From a virus (Duplodnaviria; Caudoviricetes), in IMG/VR virus record IMGVR_UViG_3300011422_000009, positions 1 to 41,554 of that record: DNA of 41,554 nt; one strand, given 5' to 3'. Shown here piece by piece: positions 1,144 through 37,382 of this stretch (within the stretch, counting starts at the first letter, position 1; each line of letters begins with the position of its first letter). Position numbers and translations under genes: made by a program. The notes under the pieces are model-generated. The model had not been told where the DNA came from. It made no database searches and saw only the letters and a list, made by a program, of their open reading frames with translations.

Positions 1144-1226
1144 TACATATAGGCAACACAAACCCCGCGCCGTACGGCGCAACCTACGGGGTTTGTGTTG
1201 CTTGTTATGTACACTATGGTACATAA
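1144..1226 (+). promoter_or_regulatory. double-hairpin intergenic element, copy 1
   Basis: Perfect stem GCAACACAAACCCCG/CGGGGTTTGTGTTGC, then overlapping short hairpin TTATGTAC-actatg-GTACATAA. Confidence 0.7.
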
Positions 1227-1265
1227 AACACAACTTTACATAACCAAGAAAGGTTATAACTTACC

Positions 1266-1655
1266 ATGCAAAACAATACCGCAACCCTTACCCCTATTGT
1301 TAAAAACAATGCTTTAGGGCAATTTGCACACTATGCGCAAGCACAGGCGCAAAAGGCGCAAGCACAGGCGCAACGCCTTGCAAACGCAACCTACGTACTT
1401 GTTAAACCTAGCAAGGCAAACATTACACGTAACAAGCAAGGGGTTACCGCACAGCAACAAGCACAGGTTAACGCAAACCTTGCTGCAACGCTTGTATTGC
1501 AACTGTACCCTTTAGTTGCGCAAAGTGGTTTAACCCCTGCGCAGCAAGCACAGGTACAGCAACACTTGTTGCAAAGTGTATATACATTGCAGCAAGTTAC
1601 AACGCTACCCGCAAGCAAGTACGCAGTACAGTTACAGTTACCGCCAAACCCATAA
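1266..1655 (+). CDS. hypothetical Gln/Ala-rich protein lacking Asp/Glu (129 aa)
   Basis: AGAAAGG RBS at 1247-1253, helical Q/A/L-rich sequence, TAA stop. Confidence 0.75.
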   Translation: MQNNTATLTPIVKNNALGQFAHYAQAQAQKAQAQAQRLANATYVLVKPSKANITRNKQGVTAQQQAQVNANLAATLVLQLYPLVAQSGLTPAQQAQVQQHLLQSVYTLQQVTTLPASKYAVQLQLPPNP

Positions 1656-2165
1656 CCCGCGCCGCAAGGCGTACCCCGCAAGGCAACGCAAACCCGTACC
1701 GCACAGCGCAGCGCAACCCGCTGCGCAGCGGTACGGGGTTGCGGCGCACAGCAACGCAGCGTACCCCGCAAGTATAGGTACGCTGCGTTGCTGTACCCCG
1801 CAAACACAGCGCAAGGTACAGCGCAACCCCTACGCAACACAGCGCAGCGCAACGGCGCAAGGCGCAAACGTACGGGTAACCCGCAAGGCAACACAAACCC
1901 GCAAGGCGCAGCGCAGCGCAGCGCAGCGCAGCGCAGCGCAGCGTACCCGCAAGGCGTACCCCGCTGCGCCGCAAGGCGCACAGCGCAACGGCACAAGCAT
2001 ACCCGCGCGTATACGCGTACGCGTATGTACCCGTACCCGCGCTTATGTGCGCGTACGCGTACCCGCGTATGTGCGTACCTGCGCGCACGCGTACCCGTAC
2101 GCAAGGGTACGGCGCACAGTACAGCGTTGCAACACGGTAACCCGTTGCAAAATTGTACTGTGCGC
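1656..2165. repeat. non-coding repeat/palindrome-rich tract
   Basis: Contains (GCGCA)7 at 1906-1940, a perfect 18-bp inverted repeat (1748-1765/1777-1794), repeated CCGCAAGG, alternating purine-pyrimidine runs at 2004-2094, and an inverted repeat at 2112-2165. Confidence 0.85.
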
Positions 2166-2172
2166 AGAAATT

Positions 2173-2312
2173 GCAAAACAAATCTCGCTACAGAAAATGC
2201 AAAACAAATCTCGTGGGCAAAAAACAGCCACAAAATCTGGTAGCAAAAAATAACCACAAAATCTGTAGCAGTTTTTGCAAAACAAATCTAGCAGTTTTAC
2301 CAACACAAATCT
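2173..2312 (+). repeat. array of six AAATCT-core direct repeats (iteron-like)
   Basis: AAATCT at 2180, 2206, 2233, 2259, 2284 and 2307, with 23-27 bp spacing. Three copies read GCAAAACAAATCT. Confidence 0.8.
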
Positions 2313-2328
2313 CATAAAGGGGCAAAAC

Positions 2329-2565
2329 ATGAAGCGAAAAAATATGTACGTAGGCAAACAAGTTCAGATTAATGTTAACGGCACATTAACTACAGGTATA
2401 ATCTCACACCTATACCCTAACCTTAAATCTGAACTACAGCAACAGGTAGAAATAGATGTACTGCATAATGGGCAATTCTTAAGCCTAACATTGTACGCCT
2501 ATCAAATCTACGCTGTGCCACATATTACCACCAACAAATTTGACCCATACGTACAAATTGCCTAA
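2329..2565 (+). CDS. hypothetical protein (small beta-rich, possibly SH3-like)
   Basis: Start moved to ATG 2329 after the AAAGGGG RBS. Sequence VGKQVQINVNG..TGII suggests a small beta-barrel (inference). Confidence 0.7.
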   Translation: MKRKNMYVGKQVQINVNGTLTTGIISHLYPNLKSELQQQVEIDVLHNGQFLSLTLYAYQIYAVPHITTNKFDPYVQIA

Positions 2566-2573
2566 CAACAATC

Positions 2574-2636
2574 TGCAAACTAGGCAGCATAAGCAAAACA
2601 AATCTTGTGCTGCATAGTGTGCAAATCTGTTGCACA
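2574..2636 (+). promoter_or_regulatory. double-hairpin intergenic element, copy 2
   Basis: TGCAAACTAGGCAGCATAAG pairs with CTTGTGCTGCATAGTGTGCA, then TGTGCAA-atctg-TTGCACA. Confidence 0.75.
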
Positions 2637-2666
2637 ATAAACCAAAATCAAATCGGAGGTAACAAA

Positions 2667-2939
2667 ATGCAAGACGGGCGCAACTACAGCGGTTTAAGCG
2701 AAAGCGAAATAAGCACGCTACTAGATCTGAGGGATAGGGTATACGAAGATCATGGTTGCATAACGCATAGCCAAAACCACCGTATTCTGATTAACCTATG
2801 CTACCATATGATGTGGGAAATAACCACAGCATTATCTGAAGAGGGTGGTAGCTGGCAAGAAGATGAGGCGTTTTTGCAAACACACGAAAAGTTGGTACAG
2901 TTGCTCAACTATACCCGCCCCGTATATTCCGAAGACTAG
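2667..2939 (+). CDS. hypothetical protein
   Basis: GGAGGT RBS before ATG 2667. Confidence 0.75.
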   Translation: MQDGRNYSGLSESEISTLLDLRDRVYEDHGCITHSQNHRILINLCYHMMWEITTALSEEGGSWQEDEAFLQTHEKLVQLLNYTRPVYSED

Positions 2940-2959
2940 CATAAAACAAAACAACAATC

Positions 2960-3020
2960 TGCAAACTAGGTTGCACAAACAAGAAGGTTTGTGCAACATA
3001 GTGTGCAAATCTGTTGCACA
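2960..3020 (+). promoter_or_regulatory. double-hairpin intergenic element, copy 3
   Basis: 21-bp stem TGCAAACTAGGTTGCACAAAC/GTTTGTGCAACATAGTGTGCA with 2 mismatches, then TGTGCAA-atctg-TTGCACA. Confidence 0.75.
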
Positions 3021-3052
3021 TAAAATACCAACACGATCAGAAAGGCACAACA

Positions 3053-3535
3053 ATGTTTATGGATACATGGGTTGCTACCGATGGGATTACTACGGTACGC
3101 TTTTCCGACCTGCAAAGCGCAGAAATATATTGCGCCCAAACAGGATGGCAAACATCTGACCTTTGGTGTATACGGCAGCAACTAATCGTAACACCAGATG
3201 GGGAAAGCGCAATAGTAGAACCCTGGTGCAATCGGATGGACCCAGATGTAGATACAGAAGTACAAGGTACGTGGCTAGATCATGTGTTTGTACCGCCTGC
3301 AAATTCTGTAGCCAACGGTACAAGCGAAGATGATGTACCTGTAACCTACAGTTCTGAATATCTACGCCAGCTAGGTAGTATTTCAGAGCGGCTAAGGTGG
3401 GATTTTCGTGACCTAGCTGCAACAGAACCCACTATTTATAACAATCTAGTGGCTTACGTTAAAAAGTGCGATGCAAAGGGCAAGAAACCTACCCTAAAAG
3501 AAGCAGAAAAAATTGTGGGTAGGTACGCCAACTAA
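3053..3535 (+). CDS. hypothetical protein
   Basis: AGAAAGG RBS before ATG 3053. Confidence 0.75.
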   Translation: MFMDTWVATDGITTVRFSDLQSAEIYCAQTGWQTSDLWCIRQQLIVTPDGESAIVEPWCNRMDPDVDTEVQGTWLDHVFVPPANSVANGTSEDDVPVTYSSEYLRQLGSISERLRWDFRDLAATEPTIYNNLVAYVKKCDAKGKKPTLKEAEKIVGRYAN

Positions 3536-3541
3536 TCTGGT

Positions 3542-3611
3542 TTGCAAGCAAAGGGTACGGCCCATCATCAGATGGGTGGGCCGTTACCTTTACTTACAAT
3601 CTGGTAAGTAA
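3542..3611 (+). promoter_or_regulatory. double-hairpin intergenic element, copy 4
   Basis: AAAGGGTACGGCCCATC pairs with GGTGGGCCGTTACCTTT, then TTACTTAC-aatctg-GTAAGTAA. Confidence 0.7.
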
Positions 3612-3644
3612 CACACAAAACAAAGTTCAGAAAGGACTTATAAA

Positions 3645-4124
3645 ATGCCTTCTCCAAGTAAGCGTACTCAGATTGCCGCTATCTTAAAGCAGCAATATGG
3701 CAATCAAGTAGATACGCCAACGGTAAAGCAACAAGCGAATTACGAAGCGCACAAAGCTGTATCAGAATACTCACATGGCTATTATCAGGATTGGGGTGTT
3801 CTGGTAGGTATGTACGCAGGGTACTACGTAATTCAGCTTGACAGAAATGTAAGAACAGATCGGGATGCCAACGAAAATCTGTATGTTGCTTTCCGACTTT
3901 ACTACAACATCTATAGCTTTACCCATGAAAATGAAATTTGCTATATCCCGCAACATAGCAATGGGGTCGGAGGCCAAACGCTAGATGACTGCCTAAATGC
4001 AATCTGCTATCATATTGCCCACAACGCAGCTTATCGCAGCGCAAACACAGGATTGTGGCAACGTAGGCTTCCAGTTCATTTACAGCAACTTCCCAACGTA
4101 CCTAATCGGTTCGGAGTAAGCTAG
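3645..4124 (+). CDS. hypothetical protein
   Basis: AGAAAGGA RBS, 159-aa ORF. Confidence 0.8.
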   Translation: MPSPSKRTQIAAILKQQYGNQVDTPTVKQQANYEAHKAVSEYSHGYYQDWGVLVGMYAGYYVIQLDRNVRTDRDANENLYVAFRLYYNIYSFTHENEICYIPQHSNGVGGQTLDDCLNAICYHIAHNAAYRSANTGLWQRRLPVHLQQLPNVPNRFGVS

Positions 4125-4126
4125 GT

Positions 4127-4180
4127 TGCACATAGGCTGCATAAACAAGATTTGTGCAGCTTATTGTGCAGATTGGCACA
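4127..4180 (+). promoter_or_regulatory. double-hairpin intergenic element, copy 5
   Basis: TGCACATAGGCTGCATAAA pairs with TTTGTGCAGCTTATTGTGCA (G-U pairs), then TGTGC-agattg-GCACA. Confidence 0.72.
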
Positions 4181-4219
4181 GCAAGCAAACAAAGCAAAGT
4201 TCAGAAAGGCTTTATACAA

Positions 4220-4495
4220 ATGTCAGAATATCCATTGGTTGCCGTACCCCACTTACATGAAGATCAATTCATGGAAGGGGATGGGGATATGGGTTTTGCC
4301 GTACATCCGATGGCTGGCTATGGTACAATCATAGTTAGCGTGGATGGATGGGATTGCCCGTTGCAATTCTTCCGAGTAGACGGCATGGGTAGCTATCAGG
4401 TTTACGAATACGTAAACGAAGAAGATGGTGTAATCTGTTACATGGTTAATCCATCAGAGTTTGCCACTGTAGTACCTGTATCGCAAGAAGTGTAA
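4220..4495 (+). CDS. hypothetical acidic protein
   Basis: AGAAAGG RBS before ATG 4220. Confidence 0.75.
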   Translation: MSEYPLVAVPHLHEDQFMEGDGDMGFAVHPMAGYGTIIVSVDGWDCPLQFFRVDGMGSYQVYEYVNEEDGVICYMVNPSEFATVVPVSQEV

Positions 4496-4499
4496 TCAC

Positions 4500-4562
4500 G
4501 CACACGATACGGCATAACCCCCACAATCTGTTGTGCCGTATAGTGTACAGGATTGCTGTACA
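4500..4562 (+). promoter_or_regulatory. double-hairpin intergenic element, copy 6
   Basis: ACACGATACGGCATAAC pairs with GTTGTGCCGTATAGTGT, then TGTACAG-gattg-CTGTACA. Confidence 0.7.
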
Positions 4563-4601
4563 GTAATCGTCCTATGAAATCTCCAGAAAGGGATACATGA
4601 A

Positions 4602-4832
4602 ATGAAGTACATATTGCTAGTACGTAAAGATGGCGAGGAAGCACGACCAATAGAATGGGGTGCAAGAGAACGCCTACGTACTTTCCAGCTAGGCTACAAA
4701 CATGGTCTTTTGGATCAGGGTTGGAAGAGCTATGCCACTTATCAAAAAGATTATTACAATTTGGTAGATGGCAAAGGTAAACACATCCAACTATATATTC
4801 TGACCGAGCAAGAATGGAAAGACGAGAACTAA
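4602..4832 (+). CDS. hypothetical protein
   Basis: AGAAAGGGA RBS, 76 aa. Confidence 0.7.
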   Translation: MKYILLVRKDGEEARPIEWGARERLRTFQLGYKHGLLDQGWKSYATYQKDYYNLVDGKGKHIQLYILTEQEWKDEN

Positions 4833-4833
4833 C

Positions 4834-5115
4834 ATGCACTATGTAATGTACAAAGAAGCTGACGGCAACAGTGAACCGGAAGTTCTGTTTGCTGGCAATA
4901 GAGACAAGGCTATCGGTTACTACGAAGGCTTTGTAGATGCAATCCAAAGAATGGGCAACCATACACCAGATTTTAGGGGTGGCATGAAAGACCCAGATAT
5001 TGATTTACGGATCGCACGCATACACTTCTATCGTAACGATAATCCTGGTTACGCTTTCAACTTATGGGTTAAGAATTTACAACTTCCGAGAGCTTATAAC
5101 TACAAAGAAAGATAA
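4834..5115 (+). CDS. hypothetical protein (paralogue of 7738-7998)
   Basis: Abuts the upstream gene. Shares E-x-LFAG...Y...DAI and F-x-LW motifs with 7738-7998. Confidence 0.75.
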   Translation: MHYVMYKEADGNSEPEVLFAGNRDKAIGYYEGFVDAIQRMGNHTPDFRGGMKDPDIDLRIARIHFYRNDNPGYAFNLWVKNLQLPRAYNYKER

Positions 5116-5121
5116 ACAACC

Positions 5122-5199
5122 ATGTTGCACGTAGAACCAGAATTTGCCATTATCGCAATTGTGTTCTTACTGTGTCTATTGTGGGGCCGTAAGGTTTAG
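5122..5199 (+). CDS. possible 25-aa hydrophobic peptide
   Basis: MLHVEPEFAIIAIVFLLCLLWGRKV with AGAAAG upstream. Fills the gap before the next hairpin element. Confidence 0.4.
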   Translation: MLHVEPEFAIIAIVFLLCLLWGRKV

Positions 5200-5200
5200 G

Positions 5201-5260
5201 CGCAAACTAGATGCTATCACCTGATTAGATGGTAGCATTTAGTGTGCGAATAGACGCACA
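5201..5260 (+). promoter_or_regulatory. double-hairpin intergenic element, copy 7
   Basis: CGCAAACTAGATGCTATCA pairs with TGGTAGCATTTAGTGTGCG, then TGTGCG-aataga-CGCACA. Confidence 0.72.
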
Positions 5261-5297
5261 ATATCTTATTAGCTAGGTTTCAAGAAAGGAACCAAAC

Positions 5298-5801
5298 ATG
5301 AACGCCAACACCACCACGATCAAGTTCCCCCGCTTCAAGAAGGATGGGATCATTGCCAATGCCGTTAAAAACCATGAAGATTATATGGCTCGGCAGAAAG
5401 CACGTTTCACCTTCATCAAGCAAGCGGCACGCATGATCGATGAGAGCTGGTTGCCTGAAGATAGCCGTTTCTACGTAGAAACCTACGGTATGACCATCTA
5501 CATTCCTTGGTCAAAGGCTAATCTTATTAAGGCACGCAAGGCTATCGGAGCTGGCTGGAAGTACGATAGCCAATACCAGAACGATAATGGTACGCTGACC
5601 AAGAATTATCACACATACTTGGAAAGCGAATACATTAGCTTGACTCTGGTAATGGATGCAGAGAAGTTGGTCGAAGGTACTTGCAAGAAGGTCTTAGTGG
5701 AAAGCAAGACCGAGATGGTGCAAGTCACACGGCAGACCTATAAGGTCATCTGCGAAGATGGCACAGAAATGATGGAAGTAGAAACAGAACGCAACGTGTA
5801 G
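5298..5801 (+). CDS. hypothetical protein
   Basis: AGAAAGGA RBS, 167 aa. Confidence 0.8.
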   Translation: MNANTTTIKFPRFKKDGIIANAVKNHEDYMARQKARFTFIKQAARMIDESWLPEDSRFYVETYGMTIYIPWSKANLIKARKAIGAGWKYDSQYQNDNGTLTKNYHTYLESEYISLTLVMDAEKLVEGTCKKVLVESKTEMVQVTRQTYKVICEDGTEMMEVETERNV

Positions 5802-5884
5802 TGCAGAGGACGGCACACCCATGATCTTGTGGGTGGGCCGTAATGCGCCTTCCACTCGGAAGCTGGTTCCAAGTCCAGGCACAT
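5796..5884 (+). ncRNA. twister-like self-cleaving ribozyme (circularly permuted, type-P5-like)
   Basis: GCA-GAG-GA-[P1 CGGC..GCCG]-UAA-UGC-GC-[P3 CUUCC/GGAAG]-[P4 CUGG-UUCCAAGU-CCAG]. Both pseudoknot pairings (GA:UC and GC:GU) are satisfied. Confidence 0.82.
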
Positions 5885-5905
5885 TATTACCCAGAAAGGT
5901 ATAAC

Positions 5906-6160
5906 ATGAAAGAAGAAGAAGGTACGTATCTTCTGCAATTCCAGTTCGATGAGGCAATAGACATGGAAACAGAATGGTTCTACCATCTGCAACATGCGTT
6001 GGTGCGCCTTACGTATCTGAGCCAAATCCACCCCGACTATCTGGTAGCTTGTATCTTATTCCAGGCTAGGGATGGTGCGCTGTTCGATGTGTGTGAATTT
6101 AACATTCGGATAGGCTATGGTTTTGAAACAGATAGGATCCCCTATGCTACGGAATTGTAG
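5906..6160 (+). CDS. hypothetical protein
   Basis: AGAAAGG RBS before ATG 5906. The longer track start overlaps the ribozyme. Confidence 0.7.
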   Translation: MKEEEGTYLLQFQFDEAIDMETEWFYHLQHALVRLTYLSQIHPDYLVACILFQARDGALFDVCEFNIRIGYGFETDRIPYATEL

Positions 6161-6425
6161 TGCAGATACTTTGTACGGCAAAGCAGATGATAGGCTTTCT
6201 CGCATTACGTCTGCCTTACTACATCTAGCGCAAGAAAAGCAAGAAAGCTGGGAAGATTGCGTACTGTGGTCTGCTCCTACAGAGTGCTGGAAGCAGATCG
6301 AAGATACGCATGATCGCAAGAAAAGCCTAGTTCTCTTCTATGTAGGTATGGATGAAACCGAATGGCTTGCTGCCGTAAGAGAACGCACCAGTGAACGATG
6401 GGTCTATTACAACTTACCATTTTAG
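6144..6425 (+). CDS. hypothetical protein
   Basis: AGGA before ATG 6144, short overlap with the upstream gene. Confidence 0.65.
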   Translation: MLRNCSADTLYGKADDRLSRITSALLHLAQEKQESWEDCVLWSAPTECWKQIEDTHDRKKSLVLFYVGMDETEWLAAVRERTSERWVYYNLPF

Positions 6426-6437
6426 GAGATTACGATC

Positions 6438-6719
6438 ATGGCAGAAGTACAGGAAATGGATCAGTGGGAACGGGATGAGTTACGAAAAGCAGCTCGTCAA
6501 GAGTACGAGAATAATATTCTCAAGAATCTACGGGATGCAGTAGCAGATGCCTACGTACCTCTCTTCCCGCCGATGGCCCCGACCAATGTAAGCCCGAAAA
6601 TCGAAAGATTGCTGGCTTACCTTACCTATGCGATCACCTTGCACTTAGATGATCATGAGGATGGTTGGTGGGAAGATGAGGATACCATTCAGGAATTTGA
6701 CACGTTGTTTTTAGGATAA
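6438..6719 (+). CDS. hypothetical acidic protein
   Basis: AGGAG RBS, 93 aa. Confidence 0.75.
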   Translation: MAEVQEMDQWERDELRKAARQEYENNILKNLRDAVADAYVPLFPPMAPTNVSPKIERLLAYLTYAITLHLDDHEDGWWEDEDTIQEFDTLFLG

Positions 6720-6740
6720 TCAAGAAAGGATACGAGAATC

Positions 6741-6878
6741 ATGTTAGTTGTCTATATATCTATATGGTTGATCAGTCGCTTAATCTATGTTGTGCTGATA
6801 GCCAACCAAAGATCTGTTCCAATCCCAGTTCCAAAGAAGAACTATACTCCTGTTTCTAGCCCACGCTGGCCTGAATAG
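6741..6878 (+). CDS. small putative membrane protein (45 aa)
   Basis: AGAAAGGA RBS and hydrophobic N-terminus MLVVYISIWLISRLIYVVLIA. Below the ORF-track size cut-off. Confidence 0.55.
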   Translation: MLVVYISIWLISRLIYVVLIANQRSVPIPVPKKNYTPVSSPRWPE

Positions 6879-6884
6879 GGTAGA

Positions 6885-6980
6885 ATGCAGAGTCCGGCAG
6901 CACATCCTAAAAGATGTGTTTGCCGTAATGCAGGTCTCGTGGTATAATGAGTCTACGGGACAAGGTGACAACTCCTTAAG
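6885..6980 (+). ncRNA. second twister-like ribozyme (type-P5-like)
   Basis: GCA-GAG-UC-[P1 CGGC..GCCG]-UAA-UGC-AG-[P3 GUCUCGUGG/CUACGGGAC]-[P4 AAGG-UGACAACU-CCUU]. Pseudoknots UC:GA and AG:CU covary with the first copy. Confidence 0.82.
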
Positions 6981-7017
6981 AAGCATAGTCTTAGCTAGTT
7001 TCAAGAAAGGAACTAAA

Positions 7018-7338
7018 ATGTTTAATCCCAAAATCCAAAAGTTAATTAAGGATCAAATGGCTGCGGATGATCATCTTCCTGCCTACGCATGGCCTGGAGG
7101 CTATCCATTGTTTTATATGGATGAGGAGAACAATGTTCTCTGCCCCAGATGTGCCTTCAAGGATAAGGATGATGAGTATCGCATCATTACAGATTACGAG
7201 ATTAACTGGGAGGATTACAATCTTCGTTGCGATGAATGCAATGATTTCATCGAATATGCTTACGGCAGCGATGGAGATGAGGATGCAGAGCGGGAACGTC
7301 AGGTCATGTTAAATGATCAGGAGGAAGATGAGGAATGA
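7018..7338 (+). CDS. hypothetical protein with CxxC...CxxC (Zn-binding) motif
   Basis: AGAAAGGA RBS before ATG 7018. Motifs AWPGGYP, CPRC and CDEC, with an acidic tail. Confidence 0.8.
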   Translation: MFNPKIQKLIKDQMAADDHLPAYAWPGGYPLFYMDEENNVLCPRCAFKDKDDEYRIITDYEINWEDYNLRCDECNDFIEYAYGSDGDEDAERERQVMLNDQEEDEE

Positions 7339-7751
7339 GAAAAGTCATCATCCACCCGACCTACAAGCAAATGACGGATGCACAACTTAAAGAGTACATC
7401 CGCCACAAACTTGAATCCCATCCACATTGGGCAAGACGTGCCTTGCTTGCGCTATATGATGAGCAAACGGATAACGAGAAGGAAGATCCCACCGTCCACG
7501 AAAGTAACGGTTACGGATTCTCCCCACAGGATCAGGAATTTCTCACATCCCTAGCGCAGCAAGCGTTACGAGAGCAAACCTTCTCGATGAAGCAGTTGGG
7601 TTGGCTCTACACTCTTCTTCCTAAGTATTCGGGTCAGTTGGTAAAACTGATACGGCAGCAACAAACGGAAGAAGAAATCTCCATCGACTTAAAACGTGAA
7701 CAACAATGGGAACAGGAAGAAGAAGACGAGGACGTAGATGTCGAGTTCTAA
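7335..7751 (+). CDS. conserved phage hypothetical protein
   Basis: ATGA overlap with the upstream gene. The W..RAL..Y..QT..E...NG.GF...D...L.S pattern is recalled from phage proteins of unknown function. Confidence 0.8.
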   Translation: MRKVIIHPTYKQMTDAQLKEYIRHKLESHPHWARRALLALYDEQTDNEKEDPTVHESNGYGFSPQDQEFLTSLAQQALREQTFSMKQLGWLYTLLPKYSGQLVKLIRQQQTEEEISIDLKREQQWEQEEEDEDVDVEF

Positions 7752-7998
7752 AAAGGTTTTTGAAGTGCTAACAAAGTCAGACAGAGATGATAGTACAGAA
7801 ACTCTGTTCGCGGGAAGTTGGCGAGCTTGTTGCATCTATTTGCAAGCCTATATAGATGCCATTGTAGCTCTCACAGATTATAAGTATCTAACTGAAGGGG
7901 ATGCAAAAATCCCCACAGAATACGATGTAGTGTTGATGTTCCGTTCACCCCTTGTATCACAACCTGACTTCTTCCTTTGGATAGACCAGGCAGCATAG
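7738..7998 (+). CDS. hypothetical protein (paralogue of 4834-5115)
   Basis: GAGG RBS. ETLFAGSWRACCIYLQAYIDAI matches EVLFAGNRDKAIGYYEGFVDAI. Confidence 0.7.
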   Translation: MSSSKKVFEVLTKSDRDDSTETLFAGSWRACCIYLQAYIDAIVALTDYKYLTEGDAKIPTEYDVVLMFRSPLVSQPDFFLWIDQAA

Positions 7999-8001
7999 TT
8001 C

Positions 8002-8053
8002 CACATAGGTTGCATCAGGATCTGGTGCAACTTATTGTGTAGATATGCTACAC
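8002..8053 (+). promoter_or_regulatory. double-hairpin intergenic element, copy 8
   Basis: CACATAGGTTGCATCAG pairs with CTGGTGCAACTTATTGTG, then GTGTAG-atatg-CTACAC. Confidence 0.72.
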
Positions 8054-8092
8054 GATAATCTATTTAGTTGGTTTCAAGAAAGGAACTACATC

Positions 8093-9124
8093 ATGGCACA
8101 CAATCTTTTCAACGAACGCTTCTACTCCCTTCGCCAACCTGCTTGGCACGGACTAGGGAAGATCGGTGAAGAGGAACAGACGGCAACGGAGATCTTCAAT
8201 GGGATGCAACCATACATTGTGACTCTGGAACCTGTCTTCACTAAGGTTGGCAACATCAAGTTGGAGTTGCCTAATCGTGTGATCACTCGCCACCCGCTTC
8301 CTGACGACAACAATTTCCGCAGTTTTGGGATTGTTGGGCCGGAGTACACAATGGTAGATCCACTTCGCACTTGTGAAATCTGGGACGAATCTACCAAGAA
8401 GCCCGTTGAAACGCTCGGTGTTCTGGGGCAAGGTGAGAGCATCTTCATCACCACAAAGCTACCCTCTTTCCAGATCATGGGAAATGGTAGCGTAGCGGAT
8501 GATGTGGATAGCTATCTTCTGTTGCACAGTCCATACGGTGATGGCGCAATTCAAGTTCGTGTTACGCCAGTACGTGTGGTCTGCCAGAATACGTTGATTG
8601 CAGCGAAATCTGCCAGCACCGAGAGTTTCAGGATCATCCACGATAAGGACGTAGAAACACGTCTGTCTGGTTGGATGGAGGGCATTGTGCAACGTGCCGA
8701 AAAGAAGAGCGAGTATCTAGCCGAATGCTTCAATTACATGGCTTCCACTACCATCGATGATGAGCAAGCAGAAGATGCTCTCAAGCGTATCTATGTGGAT
8801 CCCCGTAAGCCTTCTTATGTTCCTGACCAGTCGGTTATGGAACGGCGAGAAAAGGCTTACGAAGCCAATCTAAAAGCGAACATCGGCTGGCGGGAGCGTG
8901 TTATGGAAGATTGGCAAGGTGAGGGCATGGGCATGGACTCAGACGTGCTGAAGGGTACGGTATGGGGTCTGTATAATGCTGTAGTGGAGATTGAAGACTA
9001 TCGTCCTACAGTTGGCCCTATCGGGGACAGTCGTCAGTGGAATACGCTTTTTGGGGATCGTAGTAAGACCAAAGAGCTGGCTTACGAGCAACTGTTCCAG
9101 TATTCCATCGAGTCGAATACCTAA
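8093..9124 (+). CDS. DUF932 / TIGR03299-type phage/plasmid protein
   Basis: Family-typical motifs MAH..., PAWHGLG, ETLGVL..G..IF, TPVRVVCQNTL and GTVWGLYNAVVE..D. AGAAAGGA RBS before ATG 8093. Confidence 0.85.
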   Translation: MAHNLFNERFYSLRQPAWHGLGKIGEEEQTATEIFNGMQPYIVTLEPVFTKVGNIKLELPNRVITRHPLPDDNNFRSFGIVGPEYTMVDPLRTCEIWDESTKKPVETLGVLGQGESIFITTKLPSFQIMGNGSVADDVDSYLLLHSPYGDGAIQVRVTPVRVVCQNTLIAAKSASTESFRIIHDKDVETRLSGWMEGIVQRAEKKSEYLAECFNYMASTTIDDEQAEDALKRIYVDPRKPSYVPDQSVMERREKAYEANLKANIGWRERVMEDWQGEGMGMDSDVLKGTVWGLYNAVVEIEDYRPTVGPIGDSRQWNTLFGDRSKTKELAYEQLFQYSIESNT

Positions 9125-9125
9125 T

Positions 9126-9383
9126 ATGCCACGCTCAGGAACCCCACCACGCAAAAGTCACTACAGTCCACTAGAAATCAAGTACAAGTATGTCTTGGCT
9201 TGGTGCGTATTCGTGGATTCTCATGACTACTTTATCAAAAAGCAACTTACGGCAGCAGAGGAATCTAATGCGCCGAAGGATGCTTATTCACAACGTCCGG
9301 ATGGTACATGGCGCACATTAGATGAGATGCCTGACCAAAAGACGGCACAAGCTCTCAAGGAATGGGCTGCTTACGTCAAATAG
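9126..9383 (+). CDS. hypothetical protein
   Basis: ATG 9126 lies immediately after the DUF932 stop. The longer track start overlaps that gene. Confidence 0.65.
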   Translation: MPRSGTPPRKSHYSPLEIKYKYVLAWCVFVDSHDYFIKKQLTAAEESNAPKDAYSQRPDGTWRTLDEMPDQKTAQALKEWAAYVK

Positions 9384-9393
9384 TTTGTAAGTT

Positions 9394-9450
9394 CAAACAG
9401 ATAGCTCTCATGAAAATGGGAGCTATTTGTTTGCACTATACAATGTGCAA
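9394..9450 (+). promoter_or_regulatory. double-hairpin intergenic element, copy 9
   Basis: CAAACAGATAGCTCTCAT-gaaa-ATGGGAGCTATTTGTTTG, then TTGCAC-tatacaat-GTGCAA. Confidence 0.7.
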
Positions 9451-9597
9451 ATTACAGCGTAGGGTATAGGCAAAACACCTGTTTTAAGGTTTTATACGCC
9501 TATAGTGTACGCTGTAAAAACACCTATACCCCATTACAGGTACTACCCCACACAAAACACCTATACAACGTTTTGCAAGGGTAGTACAGCCACCCAA
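9422..9597. other. GA/TC-free intergenic island with inverted and direct repeats
   Basis: No GA or TC for about 176 bp. Inverted repeat TTACAGCGTA..TATAGGC/GCCTATA..TACGCTGTAA at 9452-9517. AAAACACCT at 9472, 9517 and 9554. Confidence 0.8.
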
Positions 9598-9615
9598 GAA
9601 AGGTCAAGATATGAG

Positions 9616-10542: not shown

Positions 10543-10570
10543 GTAATAGCGGATTGGTCGGTACGGAAAT

Positions 10571-10599
10571 TTGCCTTGCCGACCCATTCGTGTTACAAT
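10571..10599 (+). promoter_or_regulatory. sigma70-type promoter
   Basis: TTGCCT, 17-bp spacer, TACAAT, with extended -10 TG. Confidence 0.65.
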
Positions 10600-10650
10600 A
10601 AATCGTGTAGTTATTGCAGTCCCCACACAAACCAAGAAAGGTTTTACATC

Positions 10651-11688
10651 ATGGAAGACCAAGTTCAGCCCAGCATCGCCAGTCAAATCGAGGCCCTCGT
10701 TGCCGCTAAGAATGCGGAAGGTGAGTACGTCACCGTCCGTACCGTATCCAAGCAACTGGGAATCAAGCAAGCCGATGTACGGCCAAACCTTCCGGCAGGA
10801 GCTACGCTTCTTCCCTCCAAGAATGGGACAATCGGCGAAAGCCGTATTCAATTGTCAACTGGAGAGGAGGAAGAGTATGTAGACGCAGATACTCTGCCCT
10901 CTACTGACTCCAGCAACGAAGAGGAAGTCGTTCAGTTAATGCTACCAAGAAAGACGAGGCGTGTTAAAGTGGAAACTGAACCGAAGGTACAAGAGCTCGA
11001 TGAGCAGGGCAACCCCATTCCGGAAGCGGAAAAGGTAATCTGCACCATCTGCGGAAATCCCGTTCGCAAGAATACCATTGTGCGACGTGGGATTTGTCCT
11101 CTCTGCTTCCGTCAGCTTGCCAAGAATGTAGGCATGAATGCTACGAAGTTGGAAAGCCTTACGGATGAGGAGTTTGACATCGTAACTGGTGAAGAGCTGA
11201 GCCGTCGTCGCACGTTGGAAGAATACAAAGCAGGACGTATTCTTACCGATGAGCAGTTCAAGGCGATGGAAGGCACGATTATCCCCGTTAAGGAAGTCTT
11301 TGCTGCCGCTAAAGCTGCGGGATACGGGCCTGGTCGTGTCGCTCAAGCAATGGGTGGCGATCGCTTCCGGCACGAGCCTCTGGGTGGTTTTGACTCGGTG
11401 TGGACGCCCTACTTCGTAGGCGCACGCAAGGGATGGTACTTCAACATCGATATTCTCAATCACTTCGATGACCTTGCCAAGCCTGTGAAGAAAAAGAAAG
11501 CCAAGAGCGCAGGAACCCGTTCGGCAGGAGCAGGTCGTAAGGGAGCTCGTGGTGCAGCCATGACGCAAGTCGTGGAGAGTGATGAGGAAGCCACGCAAAT
11601 GATGGATTCCACCAATCCAGAAGAGGATGAGTTTTACGAAGAAGAGCAGGATGAGGATTACATCGACGAAGTAGAAGAGCAGGTTTAA
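10651..11688 (+). CDS. putative DNA-binding protein (HTH-like N-terminus, Zn finger, basic patch, acidic tail)
   Basis: AGAAAGG RBS before ATG 10651. Features VRTVSKQLGIKQADV, CTICG..CPLC, KKKKAK and a D/E-rich C-terminus. Confidence 0.75.
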   Translation: MEDQVQPSIASQIEALVAAKNAEGEYVTVRTVSKQLGIKQADVRPNLPAGATLLPSKNGTIGESRIQLSTGEEEEYVDADTLPSTDSSNEEEVVQLMLPRKTRRVKVETEPKVQELDEQGNPIPEAEKVICTICGNPVRKNTIVRRGICPLCFRQLAKNVGMNATKLESLTDEEFDIVTGEELSRRRTLEEYKAGRILTDEQFKAMEGTIIPVKEVFAAAKAAGYGPGRVAQAMGGDRFRHEPLGGFDSVWTPYFVGARKGWYFNIDILNHFDDLAKPVKKKKAKSAGTRSAGAGRKGARGAAMTQVVESDEEATQMMDSTNPEEDEFYEEEQDEDYIDEVEEQV

Positions 11689-37195: not shown

Positions 37196-37227
37196 CTAGG
37201 ATTCCTTGCGATGAATGTGTTAGGTTT

Positions 37228-37256
37228 AGCCTAACACAACATAACGTATTTGTAAA
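37228..37256 (-). promoter_or_regulatory. sigma70-type promoter for the structural operon
   Basis: On the - strand: TTTACA, 17-bp spacer, TAGGCT, with extended -10 TG. Confidence 0.55.
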
Positions 37257-37292
37257 GCAGCAATAACCGTATATTGTGGGCATATACCCAAT

Positions 37293-37321
37293 TTGCAGCC
37301 TAGCGGCGGCTGTGCTATACT
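37293..37321 (+). promoter_or_regulatory. sigma70-type promoter for the replication operon
   Basis: TTGCAG, 17-bp spacer, TATACT, with extended -10 TG. Confidence 0.7.
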
Positions 37322-37382
37322 GCTAAATACGTTATGCGCCCAAGCATAATAAAATATTACAGCCGAGAAAGGCCAAGACAGA

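Follow-up and report, generated by a model that had tools for sequence, protein, structure and literature searches.

Here we describe nine structured elements in the left arm of a partial genome of an uncultured tailed phage (Caudoviricetes; IMG/VR record IMGVR_UViG_3300011422_000009), of which the whole stretch of 41,554 nt, referred to below as the window, was analyzed. The elements lie on the + strand between the stop codon of one gene and the Shine-Dalgarno (SD) sequence of the next, covary, adopt two mutually exclusive folds and share a sequence register. They are probably intercistronic RNA hairpins that act as signals for host RNase III, with a predicted nick in the 3′ arm after which the downstream message would refold protectively. 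RNase III-type sites with refolding of the 3′ product had been proposed in an initial annotation of the window, and the covariation, + strand G-U bias, geometry and box register agree with that proposal; from these four features cleavage at the nine elements, and the ends that it would generate, are predicted as likely.

Nine elements, each with two exclusive folds

A long + strand hairpin (P1) was found at 9/9 sites, with folding energies of -26.6 to -45 kcal/mol and z scores of -4.4 to -8.2; at each of the nine sites, none of 200 shuffled sequences was as stable as the native hairpin. Read from the top, P1 consists of an upper and a middle helix separated by a defect whose place is fixed, and of a basal helix set off by a loose internal region. 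All nine sites also have a second hairpin (P2), 6-11 bp long, and P1 and P2 are mutually exclusive because the lower 3′ arm of P1 serves as the 5′ strand of P2. These energies, together with the presence of P2 at every site, bear out the existence of the nine elements as initially annotated. The imperfect long stem and the downstream re-pairing of its 3′ base arm also stand, but P1 has about 23-31 pairs rather than the 17-25 bp first given: the 'loop' ascribed to P2 (atctg, gattg, atatg) also pairs upstream, and P1 is longer than first described because this loop and its upstream strand form the basal helix of P1. AATCTG/CAGATT was considered as a DNA motif and dropped, as it is this same basal helix. 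The copy placed at 4500 starts at 4492. A ribosome-binding site was said to follow soon after most copies; for the copy placed at 9394, by contrast, the next SD is about 145 nt on, past an island free of GA/TC dinucleotides. The nine window copies are 49-84% identical in pairwise comparison, consistent with the wide divergence, both pairings being kept, that had been noted. Compensatory variants of element 2 were detected at 2585/2612 and 2586/2611 in DNA runs X3-X5.

Elements of the window, all on the + strand:
Element 1: P1 1139-1216, P2 1205-1226; predicted cut about 1205-1208 (the least certain); SD at 1248
Element 2: P1 2566-2632, P2 2618-2636; predicted cut before 2618
Element 3: P1 2952-3016, P2 3001-3021; predicted cut before 3002
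Element 4: P1 3531-3609, P2 3590-3611; predicted cut before 3589
Element 5: P1 4120-4177, P2 4164-4181; predicted cut before 4165
Element 6: P1 4492-4556, P2 4544-4562; predicted cut before 4544
Element 7: P1 5194-5255, P2 5243-5260; predicted cut before 5243
Element 8, ahead of the DUF932 gene: P1 7992-8049, P2 8032-8058; predicted cut before 8036
Element 9, without a nearby SD: P1 9385-9443, P2 9429-9452; predicted cut before 9430
Tenth strong intergenic hairpin, after the first open reading frame (ORF): 582-670; z -7.2, no convincing P2, membership doubtful

Covariation and G-U bias among 70 copies

Related loci were found by protein-guided searches, and nine non-redundant loci were used: the window, L003, L004, L025, L030, L035, L037, L038 and L045. 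The marker protein of the eight other loci is 55-94% identical to that of the window, and L031, L043, L044, L023, L024, L034, L010 and L027 were excluded as repeats of the nine. A generic two-hairpin detector gave 227 candidates, many in coding DNA, and was too noisy; it was replaced by curation in which 70 elements were hand-picked from SD-anchored folds, with removal of twister ribozymes, coding-region folds, two four-way-junction elements and two irregular spacers. P1 begins -12 to +20 nt from the upstream stop codon in 56/70 copies.

With a required distance of 9 nt or more between the loop and the P2 start, a P2 of -3 kcal/mol or lower was detected in 64/70 copies. In the energy control run, for which the partner chosen in four copies was an alternative one higher in the stem, the best P2 reached -4 kcal/mol or lower in 63/70 copies compared to 6/70 for the mirror control (5′ arm plus upstream sequence) and 15.6% for shuffled downstream sequence; taken individually, P2 was significant (p<0.05) in 49/70. 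Several pair types are used in P2 columns, for example G-C 30 times and A-U 28 times at one position.

Pair counts for P1 were taken from alignment A3, which comprises 26 of the 70 copies, picked as kept in register by MAFFT. Alignment A2 (MAFFT, 42 copies), with sub-classes out of register, and alignment A5, with P2 not in one register, were excluded from these counts. In A3, 87% of P1 cells are paired, changes occur on both sides in 14/17 pairs, and invariant columns are mostly paired A-U. The covariation score of P1 is 0.678 compared to 0.195 for shuffled and 0.07-0.16 for slid alignments, figures that are inflated by relatedness, as the copies are kin and the counts not independent. Many deviations had been described as G-U on the + strand; in the upper stems of 61 distinct copies G-U outnumbers A-C by 32:2, and across the whole of P1 by 91:44. 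This excess points to RNA of the + strand as the likely folded species.

A covariance model (R1) was built from A3. It recovers 6/9 window copies, and its + strand matches lie only in early regions, where these hairpins also give weaker mirror matches on the minus strand. Among 31 further loci R1 matched clade members only, plus one weak match, and in 12 other loci it matched none. A pattern scan of viral contigs returned 22 loci, of which only 3 were real, all of them already-known relatives; a second such scan returned 0 loci, and among 8 loci from another search only L010 matched the window. As to the Rfam check, no family matched the hairpins in the window or the 8 related loci, weak microRNA- and small-RNA-type matches being far below cut-off. 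No description of the hairpin family, or of the twister capture strand described below, was found in the literature, where thin coverage of older papers makes this weak evidence of absence.

Predicted cleavage register and refolding

The position of P2 relative to P1 resembles the geometry of an RNase III substrate. P2 starts 14 nt below the apical loop in 23/64 copies, which is the mode, and 12-17 nt below it in 51/64; at least 10 pairs lie above the P2 start in 63/64 copies and at least 10 below it in 59/64. According to PMC1540722, Escherichia coli RNase III requires an 11-bp helix; that source and PMC3867540 describe a preference for A-U/U-A at positions 2 and 4 of the proximal box and for U.G in the distal box. 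The Bacillus subtilis enzyme is given similar preferences in a preprint (bioRxiv 2023.03.12.532304), and section 7 of PMC3867540 calls the boxes degenerate. When 11 registers were compared in A3, A-U/U-A was found at three proximal-box positions in 72/78 tests with the 3′ product starting at the first base of P2, and in 48/78 in the next best register. A candidate cut 4 nt inside P2, which scored 4/78, was rejected. In the best register U.G peaks at -11 (8/26 copies, with C-G there in 14 more), the lower half-site is invariant and the upper half-site is present in 20/26 copies; positions -4 and -3 are unpaired in 17/26 and 11/26, while columns -5 and -1 are fully paired. We read an invariant lower half-site together with an upper one broken by a mismatch as favoring a single nick, on the 3′ arm.

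If the product begins where P2 does, 0-1 of its 5′ bases are unpaired in 63/64 copies, and the modeled probability of P2 rises from a median of 0.155 in uncut RNA to 0.99 in cut RNA (n=60). The SD lies 10-30 nt past P2, with a predicted accessibility of 0.67 in both fold states. We propose that host RNA polymerase would make one long early transcript, in which P1 would fold before P2 because the 3′ strand of P2 is transcribed last. The RNase III cut would fall in the 3′ arm where P2 begins, some 14 nt down from the apical loop, and the mismatch 3-4 nt above this cut would disfavor a second one. The upstream message would thereby retain a 3′ hairpin against 3′ exonucleases, and the freed strand would snap into P2, leaving 0-1 unpaired 5′ nt and an open SD downstream. 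At the new 5′ end, P2 would shield the downstream message from 5′-end-dependent decay. In PMC3997798, 5′ hairpins are reported to stabilize mRNA and RNase J1 to degrade even the 5′-OH products of ribozymes.

A number of points weigh against this interpretation. With regard to refolding, P2 is absent in 6/70 copies, its probability already exceeds 0.5 in the uncut RNA of 20/60, and when the start of the downstream ORF is included in the fold it is weak at the window copies 2566 (0.04) and 2952 (0.13). With regard to the enzyme, the fit to RNase III is incomplete: the G-C favored by E. coli at proximal-box position 1 is present in 5/26 copies only, G-C at -6 is rare in the family, and G-C at upper position 2 (-5), an antideterminant in E. 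coli, occurs in 4/9 window copies. These box rules are borrowed from E. coli, and the presence of RNase III in the host is assumed. With regard to the sample, the 70 copies were curated by hand and are related, A3 is a chosen in-register subset, and the pairing of P2 is perfect by the definition used. The evidence is that of DNA sequence, from which cleavage and transcript ends are predicted.

Predicted twister-type ribozymes in the same operon

The series of spacers that holds the nine elements also contains two twister-type ribozymes, which were absent from the initial annotation. Twisters cleave themselves between U and A of a conserved core.

Twister-P5 ribozyme 1: 5802-5878 (with its partner to 5885), + strand; RF02684, 36.9 bits, E 3e-4; predicted self-cut before 5842
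Twister-type ribozyme 2: 6886-6977 (with its partner to 6987), + strand; predicted self-cut before 6927; GCAT partner 6983-6986; core in alignment A6

Each of the nine loci has two twisters. RF02684 (cut-off 37.6 bits) is exceeded at 6 places in the relatives, where counterparts score 40.8-50.1 bits (those of twister 1, 41.4-50.1 bits); twister 2 gave no Rfam match in the window, and its orthologue at L037:5768-5847 scores 40.8 bits. Alignment A6 consists of 16 twisters from eight loci, L030 having been excluded as nearly identical to the window. The core motifs CAGAG and TAATGC (UAAUGC) are invariant in 16/16, and the CAA loop is found in 15/16 aligned rows. In 13/16, compared to 0.95 expected, the ribozyme is closely followed by a GCAT that can pair with product bases 2-5, and a sixth pair of this capture strand forms in 10/16, with five pair types. 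Downstream of twister 1 the exact GCAT is absent; 5878-5885 can pair with 7 of the first 8 nt of the product. The two twisters would do the same job as the hairpins by self-cleavage, with the downstream GCAU(U) re-pairing the AAUGC end of the product. Hairpins and twisters serve as leaders of homologous genes: one gene family lies behind a twister in the window, L004 and L030 and behind a hairpin in L035, L037 and L003 (window and L035 proteins 47% identical, E 9e-17). The gene has moved between slots, and therefore what is demonstrated is the compatibility of twister and hairpin, not a swap of elements.

We tentatively suggest, as a generalization that may be right nearly as readily as wrong, that this phage clade uses one device, cutting and then hiding the new 5′ end, in two chemistries (RNase III hairpins and twisters with GCAUU capture) that form interchangeable gene leaders. 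Counting against it, the sixth pair of the capture strand holds in only 10/16 twisters, and since the capture strand is in competition with P2 of the ribozyme itself, its effect could be inhibitory instead. According to a 2019 review (PMC6765202), processing of polycistronic transcripts by self-cleaving ribozymes of bacteria and phages has been suggested, with that role left undefined. If the suggestion is true, phage twisters gain a defined job, the making of stable monocistronic mRNAs, and it is explained how a 5′-OH twister product escapes 5′ exonuclease. The value of the finding lies in the pairing of hairpins with twisters, that is, the same slots, homologous genes and a conserved strand for the cleaved 5′ end. 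In addition, compact mRNA insulators with protected ends could be drawn directly from the 70 natural variants.

Twister 2 also holds a sigma70-type promoter match at 6920-6948 (TTGCCG-17-TATAAT with TG), and TGnTAYAAT is found in the inserted hairpin loop of 8/8 second twisters and 0/8 first twisters.

Alternative explanations

The closest alternative retains cutting and refolding and replaces canonical RNase III by another agent, such as Mini-III, another host endonuclease, a phage enzyme or self-cleavage of the hairpin. We consider this unlikely. It draws on the twisters, which occupy the same kind of spacer and of which the first shares upper-stem sequence with one class of hairpins (3542 compared to 5802), as well as on the partial match to the E. 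coli boxes. By contrast, the hairpins have no invariant single-stranded core as ribozymes do, the invariant columns of A3 being mostly paired, and match no ribozyme family, whereas RNase III fits both the box register and the two-sided geometry of 11 bp. No RNase III domain was found in the contig, although at a completeness of about 50% (CheckV) a phage nuclease could be missing from it.

Less probable again is an uncut conformational switch, mentioned in the initial annotation, in which a ribosome terminating at the upstream stop would melt the base of P1 and allow P2 to form, tuning downstream translation or pausing. The stop codon does overlap or abut P1, which begins close to it in most copies, and the two folds are near-isoenergetic in 20/60 copies. 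No output of such a switch was seen, however: the SD lies beyond P2 and is equally accessible in both states, and the RNase III register and the minimum length of the upper stem are left unexplained. We do not favor it.

The annotation had further raised recombination sites that shuffle early gene cassettes at the DNA level, as integron attC sites or T4-type PeSL cassettes do, and we regard this as improbable. Like attC and PeSL sites, the elements are imperfect inverted repeats after stop codons that border exchangeable genes. Breakpoints of gene exchange at the elements are seen in part: identity between the window and L004 is lost at two start codons (2662 and 3647) and regained where the following elements lie (2955 and 4115), with a similar pattern for L030. 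Gene content between elements varies over the nine loci, and orthologous slots can hold the sequence of another copy. Unlike attC and PeSL sites, however, the elements carry the attC R boxes RYYYAAC and GTTRRRY in 0/70 copies and promoter-like motifs in 4/70, and have the strong + strand G-U bias of RNA. Integrases gave no match among the 47 ORFs of the window, itself a partial genome; the copies are only 49-84% alike, and recombination would leave P2 without a role. Selection alone would also be expected to keep flanks conserved around ORFs that vary. The gene swaps end at the elements, but shuffling looks secondary; we read gene exchange as a by-product of repeated, selected leaders.

Finally, we regard it as very improbable that the elements are terminators, whether intrinsic or factor-dependent, or hairpin promoters of single-stranded DNA that act as the DNA enters: the hairpins do lie just after stop codons, and A-rich flanks (at least 5 A before P1 in 19/70) give some copies a weak minus-strand U-run, but at least 5 T within 8 nt are found after P1 in 1/70 and after P2 in 3/64 copies, in line with the lack of U-tracts first reported, the stems, with their internal loops and about 25 pairs, do not resemble terminators, the G-U bias is on the coding strand, and no virion RNA polymerase is annotated in this partial genome.

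Genome context and other sequence features

The left end of the window carries small + strand genes, mostly without known function, DUF932 among them, and its layout suggests that this arm is the 'early' region. The minus strand encodes terminase, portal, capsid, major tail protein and a GT4 glycosyltransferase, and the right end has helicase, Sak4, SSB and RuvC-like genes; DNA polymerase A, primase, ThyX and a dUTPase/NT5C-like gene are additionally present in one relative. The clade carries the GT4 glycosyltransferase and a ThyX/dUTPase/NT5C cluster. In the search for a host, no relative was found among GTDB genomes, the matches of the capsid among Clostridioides and Bacillus phages are at 30-35% only, and the Atlas taxa are viral. 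The 24 runs listed as holding the region are all DNA, from sediment or groundwater, and DNA contigs cannot reveal transcript ends. In an independent DNA run (X2), 17/17 contigs were at least 99% alike to the window, which backs the sequence across the part covered.

The first approximately 2.1 kb (1-2165) is nearly free of GA/TC, with one GA (at 1248, within an SD) compared to about 265 expected, and its ORFs are without Asp and Glu because these dinucleotides are almost absent. Similar blocks with 0-3 exceptions are found in L003 (1-3790), L025 (1-1736), L030 (1-1395), L037 (1-2364), L038 (1-1070) and L045 (1-1609), and that of L003 barely aligns with that of the window. The block is a candidate for a first-entering region without restriction sites or without sites of phage DNA modification, and is possibly more novel than the hairpin finding. 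GC-rich palindromes, GCGCA tandem repeats and very stable hairpins (z to -10) close the block at 1670-2165. Directly after it, at 2165-2310, are about six diverged copies of a unit of about 26 nt with CAAAACAAATCT, possibly a protein-binding or promoter array, and L003 and L004 are similar. GA/TC-free islands of 150-180 nt at 9420-9598 and 37213-37365 are kept in most relatives. In L035 and L045 the loop of the element 9 counterpart contains the first island; the second, which has a promoter match, TTGCAG-17-TATACT (37293-37321), is situated between the late operon and the replication operon, which diverge. CGCG is strongly avoided at 9600-41554 (observed/expected 0.06), as are many palindromic hexamers, and is common in 1-2160.

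Two further structures were noted. At 10545-10600 another hairpin and a promoter (TTGCCT-17-TACAAT) precede a zinc-finger-like gene (10576-11688), an arrangement also seen in several relatives. In L025 (3712-3802) and L035 (2217-2295) a leader slot before one gene family is taken by a four-way-junction RNA whose CG-TAAAGT-CG hairpin is conserved; this RNA had no Rfam match, a viral scan found the contig of L025 only, and it is a candidate for an undescribed structured RNA or ribozyme.

Comparison with known systems

The likeness of the operon to RF02684 concerns the two ribozymes only, not the nine hairpins, and the Rfam model includes neither the promoter inside the second copy nor the downstream GCAU(U) strand that re-pairs.

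The T7 early operon, taken as the model in the initial annotation, fits in position, size and boxes. The T7 early mRNA signals R0.3, R0.5, R1, R1.1 and R1.3 likewise lie between early genes and are of similar size. Their cut positions, which fall at the 3′ side of each site's internal loop, place Y-G at -11 and A-U at -5 (5/5 T7 sites), as in the elements. T7's G-C at -6 is not kept here, and T7 has no systematic 5′ refold: R1.1 reaches -5.8 and R0.5, weakly, -4.8 kcal/mol, and the other three are above -1 kcal/mol.

SPO1 is closer. Like the RS sites of SPO1 and SP82, the elements are intercistronic early-region hairpins with an upper stem, an internal defect and a lower stem, the lower 3′ arm of which refolds to a 5′-terminal hairpin just before the SD (64/70 here). 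A TGGAGC core is common to six SPO1 stems, four of which are annotated as RNase III sites, RS-A to RS-D (GenBank AF031901), as mapped to NC_011421 by gene-coordinate offsets; RS-E and RS-F are not among the six. In 6/6 motif stems the refolded hairpin includes the first base, at a distance of 12-13 nt from the loop. At about 5839 (+) and 12239 (-) of NC_011421, RS-core stems before genes 44 and 57 are unannotated as RNase III sites in AF031901. Sharp and Bechhofer reportedly worked on the SP82 5′ stabilizer in 2005. Earlier work on it (Hue 1995) is cited in PMC7509114; PMC4838370 treats the SP82 sites as known RNase III substrates and PMC1935012 states that the targets are cut once, on the downstream side.

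The elements differ from the SPO1 sites in sequence, as R1 scores none of these (best E 0.32, elsewhere) and the SPO1/SP82 RS core GCTAG ... CATGGAGC is absent from A2 and A3; the TGGAGC core, too, is missing. P2 is longer than its SPO1 counterpart, at 6-11 bp with no bulge; nine copies stand in a single operon, with a small mismatch where SPO1 has a 3-nt bubble; and the phage clade is unrelated to SPO1 and siphophage-like, with twisters in the same series. The 'new structured RNA family' of the initial annotation therefore holds as a new sequence family without an Rfam match, but a new kind of system would be too strong a claim, since RS-A to RS-D share the design. The elements would work like SPO1 RS sites without belonging to that sequence family. 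Taken alone, the hairpins would add a new sequence family to a long-known device, the RNase III punctuation of phage early mRNA in T7 and SP82/SPO1; what is new is the twister parallel, together with the single-base cut predictions.

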